A stretch of DNA of 64,000 bases from assembly GCF_057098645.1 (NCBI RefSeq), contig NZ_CM169472.1. The stretch is one strand, 5' to 3'. The position numbers are program-made. Each line of letters starts with the position of its first letter. Position 1 is the stretch's first letter. Below are positions 24,901 through 27,900 of this stretch, in pieces.

Positions 24901-27900
24901 TGCTATACACGCTTTCAGAAGTGAGAGAAAGAAATATCTTTCTCTGTACCCAACAGTAATGGACACTTTGAGTGTATTAAAAAGTAAAGGGTGTTATATT
25001 GTCGCGTATACTGAATCCAAAGCTTATTACTCCAATTTCCGCTTAACAAGATTAGGATTAGATGGTGTGATTGATGTCCTTTTCTCTCCTGAAGATCATG
25101 AAATCCCTGATGGTGAGAAAAAACAAGATAAATATAATCTAATGCTGACAAAGCAAGAATATACACCTATTGATGAAATTAAACCAAACCCACAACTTCT
25201 TCTGGACATAATAAAATCAATTGGTGCCACACCAGAAGAGTGTGTATATATAGGTGACAGTGAAATGAAAGATATAGAAATGGCCCAAAAAGCAAACGTA
25301 TCAGATGTTTTTGCAAGCTATGGAACGAATCATTTTGAAGAGAACAAGGAGGGATATGAATTACTCCGTGCGGTAACCCACTGGACTGATGCTGATGTTG
25401 AAAGGGAAAGAAAAATTAAAGAAAATGCCTTCGGAGCAAAACCCACATATGTAGCCAAACAATTTTCAGATATTTTGTCTTTTTTTGAATTTACAAAATT
25501 TAAAGGAAAATAGAATGAACGATCTAGAATTAAAGAAACATGATGACGCTATAAAATTAGAAAATCTCAAGTTGAAAATTGATATCTGGAAGACAGTTGT
25601 TGACGTTCAGAAACATTTTAATGATCTTGAGATGAAGGTTAGAAACTTCGGAATTTTGATCTTGTCTGCATTTATTGGTGCAATTGGTGTAAGCTTTAAT
25701 TCCGGCGCTGAATTTATAGCCTTTGGCAATCATTACTCTGTTGCTGCCATTCTTGCTTTCGGGGCATCTGTTGTTTGGTTGTTATTTTATTTTGTTGACG
25801 TTTACTGGTATCACCCATTACTTCTTGGAGCTGTAAAGAAAGGTTCAGAACTCGAAAAAGAAATTGCATCCGACATCCCAGGAATTAATCTTACAGAAAC
25901 CATAGGAAAAAGTAGCCCAAAAGATATTTTGCTCTGGAAAAATATGCATAGTACTGGAAAAGCTAACCTTTTCTACTTTGGGGTTTTAGCTGTTCTGTTA
26001 ACTATTTTTATTTCTCTACTGTGCTTTAAAGCCCCGCAAAAGACAAATCAACTAAATGAATTAAATATTAAAGCAAATTGCACTAGAAACAGTAATTACA
26101 ATGGAGTTAATTGCATTATCGCATCACAGCCAAGTGACAACAAATAGTGCACTTTATCACTCTTTACCCCAACTGCATGTACTTACCTTGTGAGCACAGA
26201 GACGCGCTATAAATAAACACTTTACTGCTGGCGGGCGGTGCTTTCCCCGCCTCGCCCGCCCGCTTTGCAGGGCGGTTTTAATGCAGTTGCACAGTCACGC
26301 TCAGGCTGCGCCGGGAATGGCGCGGTCTGCAGAGAATGAGGCAGGAAAACGCATGCAAAGCCATGCACCTTATCGATGCATGGCTTTTTTCAGTAAAAAC
26401 GGGAGGATTTTCGGGGAATTTTACACAGACTGACGTGATGCCAGTTGCGCACTTTTACGCGAAAAAATCATGTTCTGCGCAGGGGTGAATTTTTCACGGC
26501 TGTCATCCACCGAAGCCGCGTCAGGCCTGAATCCGATGGTCGTTAAAATGTCGCTATCCTGTGCGGAATAATTAATTTTTTCACCCTTCGCAAGCCAGGA
26601 CAGGAGGGCTTCACGCAGGGCATCTGTGGCACGCTGTATGGCACAGTTTCGGGCAATGGCCGTCAGCTCACTGTAGCCCATCAGCTCCGGTGCCAGTGCC
26701 GCCGCCAGTGCTGTGCCGTGCTGCTGCATAAAATCATTCAGCCGATCGCGGATGCTGATGTGCTGAACGGCTTCATGCGAACGAATATAACGACCGGCGG
26801 CCTGATTCACCTGCCATTTTCTGACTTCGATAATATTGCGTAATTCGTCCAGGCGACTGACGTTTCTGCCTTCTCCTGACAGAAGCCGCAGATATTCCTG
26901 TTCGGCCGCAGCCAGCTCATTTTTGCGTTGCAGCCATGCTGCTTTGTTATTCTGACAGGTGTCAAAGGCCTGCTGTAAGGCTGTGCTTTCCATCGTTATC
27001 TCTTTCTCATCATGCTGAAGAATAAAAATACGGTGTGCGGCGACGGCCGGGGTTAACCGGCAGCCCTCATTCCAGACGCAGCGAATATGATTGTGTTTTT
27101 AACCGTACTGGCGGCAGTTCCTGTTTTTCATGCAGGCTTTCTGCCAGTTCGTCCGGCGTGACCGGGCGGACAATGAAGCGGTTGATGGTCTGAAGCGTTT
27201 TAAACACCAGACCACAGCCCGGATCCGTGCACACATAAAAACGCTCGGTGACTTCCTGAGACAGACGCCGCGATGTTCTTGACAGCGCAAGGCCTTTACA
27301 TCTCCGACAACAATATCCGGTAACAAGCATTCTTTTCGGGCGCTTCATGCTACCGGAGGCTGACGTCAGTGAATCGCGGTATCTCTGTTTGCCTGAAATG
27401 TATTCCATTCCTGAATCTTTACAGTCAGAGAAAAAGCTTTCACTCGCTTCAAATGTCGCAGAGCAATAAATATTCCGGCACTGTGCAATCATTATCTTGG
27501 TGCCATCGTCCATGAAATGTGCGCGACGGGTGTGAGCAACATGTCCACACGACGGGCAGTAAATCATGACAGCAGTCCTCTGGCCTTAAGCACTGCTCCC
27601 TGCTGGTCTATTTTGTCCTGCCACACCTTGCGCTGTGCCGGTGTGCCTGCCACCTCATAATCCATGTGCGGGAGTGTTGCCGCTGACAGTCCGGTCAGCC
27701 GGAGAACCGGCTCGCCGGTGAGGCTGATTTGCATCTGTTTTATTTTCTGTTCCAGCGATGATTTCACCTGCTGCGTATTCCGCTCTATTCGATCACGGAT
27801 TGGCATCGAAGTCCGATCAGCGATTCGCATCCATTCGATCAACCGGGAACTTAACTTTTTCTACCGCTTTTTAACGCGTTTTTTCGCTGCTTTCCACTAC

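Follow-up and report, generated by a model that had tools for sequence, protein, structure and literature searches.

The locus considered here raises the question of whether a P4-like satellite prophage whose sid gene has been split still carries a cohesive-end site (cos) that the terminase of a P2-like helper phage could use. In our window, by which we mean the whole 64-kb stretch of DNA that was analysed, the 19-nt cohesive-end sequence GGCGAGGCGGGGAAAGCAC is present as an exact match at 26238-26256 on the minus strand, with predicted nicks at both of its borders, and this is its sole occurrence even when up to 3 mismatches are allowed. Shuffled sequence yielded a mean of 0.01 matches to GGCGAGGCGGGGAAAGCAC, and a chance match was therefore ruled out. 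A preliminary description of this DNA had placed the exact 19-mer at this position on the reverse strand, and the single match in the window agrees with it. Our reading, to which we assign a probability of about 0.8, is that the 19-mer is the cos of a ~13.1-kb P4-like satellite in selC upstream of the LEE island, that the site can be inferred to be still cleavable, and that mobilisation of the satellite should be inefficient. Spread by a P2-like helper is plausible on this analysis, and probably inefficient.

A nearly complete P4-like satellite in selC

The satellite unit measures 13,124 bp, from attL in tRNA-Sec to attR at 36354. ARAGORN located the tRNA-Sec gene (selC), which is the integration target, at 23156-23250 on the plus strand (Rfam tRNA-Sec, 83.8 bits), and repeat comparison identified the attL core GACTCCTGTGATCT in its 3' end (23230-23243) as a 14-bp direct repeat of the attR core at 36354-36367, beyond which lies the LEE island. 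A tyrosine integrase gene of the selC type (23413-24591, plus strand), whose product shares 38% identity with P4 Int and contains the arm-binding, central and catalytic domains, adjoins the tRNA gene, and the att repeats bound the element. Just outside the 14-bp core, one T that is present in the tRNA 3' end at attL is deleted from the attR region (36354-36376; GATCT-CCGCCA). This deletion is shared by O145 RM9872 and is missing from the LEE-free satellites of E6 and WWCOL-236, indicating that it belongs to the LEE-side junction.

P4-like satellites occur in roughly half of E. coli genomes, with cos located inside a hotspot between int and psu (PMC8628076, PMC9122126), and their core set consists of int, psu, delta, sid, alpA, epsilon and alpha (PMC8628076). 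All seven loci are present here in P4 order; five are intact, and sid and epsilon are pseudogenes rather than absent. P4 positions 4291-10119, which hold crr, alpha, epsilon, the CI region, vis, ori and the 5' part of sid, align continuously to window positions 36223-30406 at 97.1% identity, and P4 positions 10107-11624, comprising the 3' end of sid, delta and psu, align to 27774-26257 at 98.2%. Full-length products 97-100% identical to those of P4 are encoded for Psu (190 aa, 99.5%; 26421-26993, minus strand), Delta (166 aa, 97.6%; 27067-27567, minus strand), the excisionase and regulator Vis/AlpA (ORF88; 88 aa, 98.9%; 31494-31760, plus strand), ORF151, ORF106 and the Alpha primase-helicase (777 aa, 99.4%; 33544-35877, plus strand). 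The ori region, projected from P4 9086-9809 to approximately 30705-31428, and crr (35923-36223), which was recognised by P4 alignment and by its two 120-bp direct repeats and is required in cis for replication, both align to P4 without gaps. The CI/C4 immunity antisense RNA was detected together with its targets at 32008-32095 on the plus strand (Rfam RF01695, 74.3 bits). Upstream of this RNA, matches to Rfam isrK (69 bits) and c4-a1b1 (50 bits) at 31819-31909 represent the usual P4 immunity leader. Taken together, these comparisons suggest that cos, int, vis, alpha, ori, crr, delta and psu are intact, as are the immunity functions.

Two genes on the plus strand, both detected at full length by PADLOC, make up the cargo that separates int from psu. 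The first (24647-25513) encodes the HAD-like hydrolase of Hydrolase-TM (PDLC03008, E=6e-198; Pfam HAD_2), and the second (25515-26147) encodes the partner of the hydrolase (PDLC03009, E=7.5e-141), which has been described as a transmembrane protein (PMC9122126). Hydrolase-TM was found in the P4 hotspot by Rousset et al. and is active against T7 (PMC9122126); the hydrolase and its partner occupy the same int-psu hotspot in the window. In strain E6, RefSeq names the genes corresponding to 24647-26147 misB and misC.

The preliminary description also held that sid is disrupted, which proved correct. An IS21-family element (istA/istB; 2,639 bp, 27772-30410, minus strand) with TG...CA ends splits the gene and is bordered by a clean 5-bp target duplication, CCTGC, at 27767-27771 and 30411-30415. 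Comparison with P4 and the junctions themselves delimit a 5' fragment covering Sid residues 1 to about 177 (30411-30942, minus strand) and a 3' fragment covering residues about 176-244 (27564-27771, minus strand). Sid is interrupted after about residue 177 and loses the C-terminal helix through which it mainly contacts the capsid protein gpN (PMC7552001); polar effects of the insertion on delta and psu may also arise. Over 2,644 bp the element is 99.66% identical to an annotated element of strain WWCOL-236, whose copy sits elsewhere in its selC satellite, between sid and vis. Besides sid there is a second lesion, absent from the earlier reading of the sequence, in the helper-derepression gene epsilon (32340-32625, plus strand). 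A 2-nt deletion in the A-run just after the GTG start (32340) leaves A4 where P4 and O145 RM9872 have A6, shifting the frame after codon 4 so that a stop codon follows codon 13. The deletion is shared by none of the 975 complete E. coli genomes in which this stretch occurs, indicating either a strain-specific mutation or a homopolymer assembly error. At least 80% of the element is covered by one complete genome only, in which the IS21-family copy is at a different site, and no member of the complete-genome collection combines Hydrolase-TM, an IS21-family element in sid, the epsilon frameshift and the LEE. From these comparisons, the lesions in sid and epsilon appear to be recent and strain-specific.

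A P2-like helper prophage in the window was ruled out, as structural, terminase and replication genes are all lacking. A tblastn search of the 64-kb window with P2 Q, P, O, N, M, FI, A and Cox came back empty, the sole hit of P2 Ogr was to delta of the satellite itself (27163-27567), and at the DNA level P2 matched the window over 48 bp at cos only.

Related elements at this site are well represented. The selC satellites of E6, 042, ST2350, WWCOL-236 and O145 RM9872, as well as 933L of O157:H7, have the same site, integrase type, gene order and 19-mer. RM9872 has the same selC-satellite-LEE layout as the window and is 99.4% identical to it from sid through the LEE, and E6, 042 and ST2350 share with it the CGCCCGC flank considered below. 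A P4-type prophage beside the LEE at selC, 933L, is already known and was reportedly described by Perna et al. in 1998. A P4-type integrase that 933L and the LEE island use has been mentioned elsewhere (PMC3378721). For annotation, the value of the present analysis is that the selC-LEE region can be described as a nearly complete P4-like satellite with a known anti-T7 system rather than as an unexplained GC-rich palindrome.

The cos core, its flanks and a rare allele

According to secondary sources, homology between P2 and P4 is confined to a 55-bp cos region, which is the packaging signal (PMC3931495, PMC9594776, PMC9122126; for the 55-bp definition, PMC3931495, PMC2231350, PMC9594776). In the window this core occupies 26231-26285 on the minus strand, where the 19-mer is flanked by 29 bp towards psu and by 7 bp towards the cargo, and 53 of the 55 core positions are identical to P4. 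When the cos junctions of the window, P4 and P2 are aligned, the order of the core is TGCATTAAAACCGCCC[C]GYRAAGCGGGCG, the 19-mer and YGCGCGC, and the window has two substitutions relative to P4, a C-to-T change in the hairpin region and a G-to-C change at +4, four bases past the 19-mer, which gives CGCCCGC where P4 has CGCGCGC. The P4 cos (NC_001609 / X51522, junction 11624/1) has the same 19-nt cohesive end and the same place beside psu. The linear P4 record ends at position 11624, whose counterpart in the window, position 26257, abuts the 19-mer, so the window contains a closed cos junction. The P2 cos (NC_001895) has the same 19-mer and 55-bp core architecture and is 93.8% identical over 48 alignable bp; it differs from the window in the loop bases of the upstream hairpin (GTGAA in the window, GCAAA in P2), and has T at +1 and G at +4 where the window has C at both positions. 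Outside cos, P2 bears no resemblance to the window.

The 19-mer has the cargo genes, ending at 26147, on one side and psu on the other, and sits in the GC-rich palindromic context that had been noted beforehand. A perfect 8-bp inverted repeat (GCGGGCGG at 26231-26238 and CCGCCCGC at 26256-26263) brackets the 19-mer, and a second stem of 6 bp pairs 26256-26261 with 26270-26275. Folding of the core as single-strand DNA gave -18.9 kcal/mol for the window, -17.0 for P4 and -12.4 for P2, which confirms the palindromic character and carries no information on function. Since the stem of P2-like sites varies without compensation, the hairpin is not put forward here as a requirement. Within the psu-side part of the core, which is conserved, there is also a terminator-like hairpin with a T-run (CCGCCCGCTTTGCAGGGCGG TTTTAATGCA; 26256-26275, plus strand), oriented as the cargo genes are; it might block transcription from crossing cos.

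Truncation or divergence of the flanks relative to the P4 cos had been put forward as grounds for doubting the site, and neither was found. Both were ruled out by the 53/55 core and by a psu-side flank that is 98% identical to P4 over 1.5 kb, and the cargo side diverges only where P2 and P4 themselves do. Past +7, the cargo-side sequences of the window, P4 and P2 are all mutually different, and that of the window is unrelated to that of P4 because its cargo is Hydrolase-TM and not gop/beta/cII. Matches to the cos region in 2,401 E. coli genomes mostly stop 7-10 bp past the 19-mer on the cargo side, and this, together with the divergence among the three sites, argues that there is no shared specific signal past +7. 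An AT-rich tract at +14 to +33 is found in P2-like and P4-like sites and in the window too; it may merely reflect AT-rich cargo DNA, and we give it little weight. Cosmid transduction can vary by more than 1000-fold with the flanks outside the core (PMC9594776), and on the cargo side the flank of the window cos differs from that of P4. The site had also been singled out as retained in the prophage. The 19-mer is indeed intact, but its retention is unremarkable, as the exact 19-mer is kept by all five of the other selC satellites inspected.

We compiled 199 cos sites from IMG/VR and from E. coli loci and classed them by their neighbouring genes as P2-like (157), P4-like (26) and other (16). The C-to-T substitution (CCGCCCTGC) was present in 6 of the 26 satellites. 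Its position falls in a bulge or loop of the upstream hairpin and is occupied by C, T or G among selC satellites; the substitution thus has the appearance of a common polymorphism and is treated here as neutral. The +4 G-to-C change is far less common. The resulting CGCCCGC matches the heptamer YGCGCGC at six of seven positions and was found, among the 199 sites, in the window and in E. coli E6 only, while all other complete flanks read YGCGCGC or vary at +6 or +7 only. This heptamer is an empirical near-invariant of the 199-site sample and not a published requirement. Exact searches with the canonical form gave at least 120 hits in IMG/VR and 24 in 100,044 species-representative genomes, and the window cos allele gave none in either. 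Of 5,426 complete E. coli genomes, 13 carry the +4 variant. Seven of these 13 match across the whole cargo-side flank, like the window, and six match through the 19-mer and the heptamer only. E. coli 042 and ST2350, the two inspected of those six, carry as cargo an AAA ATPase and a DUF4435 protein, which is the domain pair described for PARIS (PMC9122126). Among the genomes inspected, the variant is therefore found with two different cargos, Hydrolase-TM and the AAA ATPase with the DUF4435 protein, indicating that it persisted through a cargo change.

With C at +4, the 7-bp sequences on the two sides of the 19-mer become exact reverse complements of each other, and the bottom-strand nick context is thereby GCGGGCG^G, identical to the top-strand context in P2, P4 and the window. 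Because the flanks of the two nick sites are then the same, we infer that the nuclease of a P2-type terminase would tolerate the change. The change could also weaken the site, since the heptamer is otherwise nearly invariant and the variant is absent from IMG/VR and from the species representatives. As a natural point variant, the symmetric cos allele could be used to probe which flank bases are read by the P2 terminase.

Packaging and mobilisation by a helper

From what is known of P4 biology, mobilisation would begin when a P2-like helper infects the cell and activates the satellite. Int and Vis would excise the satellite at attL and attR, after which Alpha would drive its replication from ori and crr. 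On the closed circles, the 55-bp cos core would then be recognised by the helper terminase (gpM/gpP), which would nick each strand at GCGGGCG^G, the two cuts lying 19 nt apart and leaving 19-nt 5' overhangs, and the linear DNA would be threaded into helper-built capsids. The P2/P4 terminase prefers covalently closed circles (PMC2231350), so that excision and replication would be needed and cos alone would be insufficient.

It had been suggested beforehand that the element could be packaged by a P2-like terminase in spite of the loss of sid, and this suggestion stands in part. In its favor, the site is a true P4 cos homologue with a 53/55 core, and a multimer route is available: P4 genomes enter P2-size capsids as multimers at low efficiency (PMC6893505), and the loss of sid is consequently no bar to packaging in principle. 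The suggestion is weakened by the rare +4 change, the epsilon frameshift, the 13.1-kb unit and the lack of helper genes in the window. With sid split, only P2-size heads would be expected, and they would have to be filled by dimers of a unit that the IS21-family insertion has enlarged to 13.1 kb. A dimer of this unit (26.2 kb) amounts to 78% of the 33.6-kb P2 genome, and a trimer (39.4 kb) to 117%. We predict that the unit would fit P2-size heads poorly, and that dimers would be packaged at reduced yield. The role of P4 epsilon is the derepression of a resident P2 prophage, and it is not needed for exploiting an infecting helper. The frameshift is probably no bar to the use of an infecting helper, yet it probably prevents the satellite from derepressing a resident P2 prophage. 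The limits to transfer that can be listed for this element are thus sid, epsilon, the unit size and the rare base at the nick site.

The same lesions could be taken to mean that cos is an inert relic of an immobilised, decaying prophage that is kept for its defence cargo, the site having either not yet decayed or been inactivated by the +4 change. Two genes for helper exploitation are broken, sid by the IS21-family element and epsilon by the frameshift, and helper genes are missing from the 64-kb window. Beyond a small number of E. coli genomes the +4 variant is not found, and each of the four carriers inspected has it in a selC satellite. All 13 variant genomes may carry it at selC, and if so, vertical descent and local recombination could explain its spread without packaging. 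We nevertheless regard this explanation as unlikely. The remaining P4 functions are all intact, at 97-99% identity, both lesions look recent and strain-specific, with an IS insertion that has a clean 5-bp target duplication, and the cutting of cos by terminase needs neither sid nor epsilon. A satellite with a cleavable cos and inefficient mobilisation accordingly remains our preferred reading, although the 1-nt deletion beside the attR core counts against it.

Mosaic structure and the LEE side of the window

The window is a mosaic. A segment spanning at least 21400-26295, which includes int, the cargo and the whole cos core, is 99% identical to the E6 type, and the sequence from about 26307 to the window end, through the LEE, is of the O145 RM9872/P4 type at 98-99.4% identity. 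The recombination breakpoint is placed at 26296-26306, 10-20 bp past the psu-side edge of the core, by few informative SNPs. Rousset et al. have linked cos to diversification of the hotspot (PMC9122126, PMC8628076), and a breakpoint by the cos core adds an example in support of this published proposal of cos as an anchor for swapping defence cargo.

It could be argued from this breakpoint, 10-20 bp beyond the core edge of a mosaic window, and from the published link between cos and hotspot diversification (PMC9122126, PMC8628076), that the cos block is mainly a homology anchor for swaps of defence cargo and not a packaging signal. We give this argument very little credence. An anchor role is compatible with packaging, the position of the breakpoint depends on few informative SNPs, and terminase recognition, not recombination, accounts for the exact conservation of the 19-mer in satellites and P2-like phages. 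The cos in the window is an ordinary packaging site of a known kind, unusual only in its rare symmetric allele and in the adjacent breakpoint, and current understanding of the P2/P4 system is unchanged.

With cos lying ~10 kb from the LEE in the chromosome, a terminase cut in situ might initiate packaging of chromosomal DNA, so that a portion of the LEE or of the selC flank would be moved much as in lateral transduction. A weaker possibility is that the perfectly symmetric CGCCCGC allele represents a distinct cos variant, altered in cutting efficiency or helper preference. We consider these proposals highly improbable. The presence of a single cos-like site in 64 kb argues against in situ packaging, as does the fact that P2-type packaging requires a terminal cos and favours closed circles (PMC2231350). 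A second cos site for cos-to-cos packaging of chromosomal DNA was sought, and there is none in the window.

The LEE island (36368-64000) lies directly past attR and includes espF, espB/D/A, eae gamma, tir and esc genes. Used as a query, positions 36300-52000 showed 99.8% identity to O145:H28 strains, in which selC, satellite and LEE are arranged as they are here but the satellite carries another cargo, GapS4a. Within espF (37240-37907), tandem internal repeats corresponding to proline-rich modules were evident as staggered self-matches in the BLAST comparison with RM9872.
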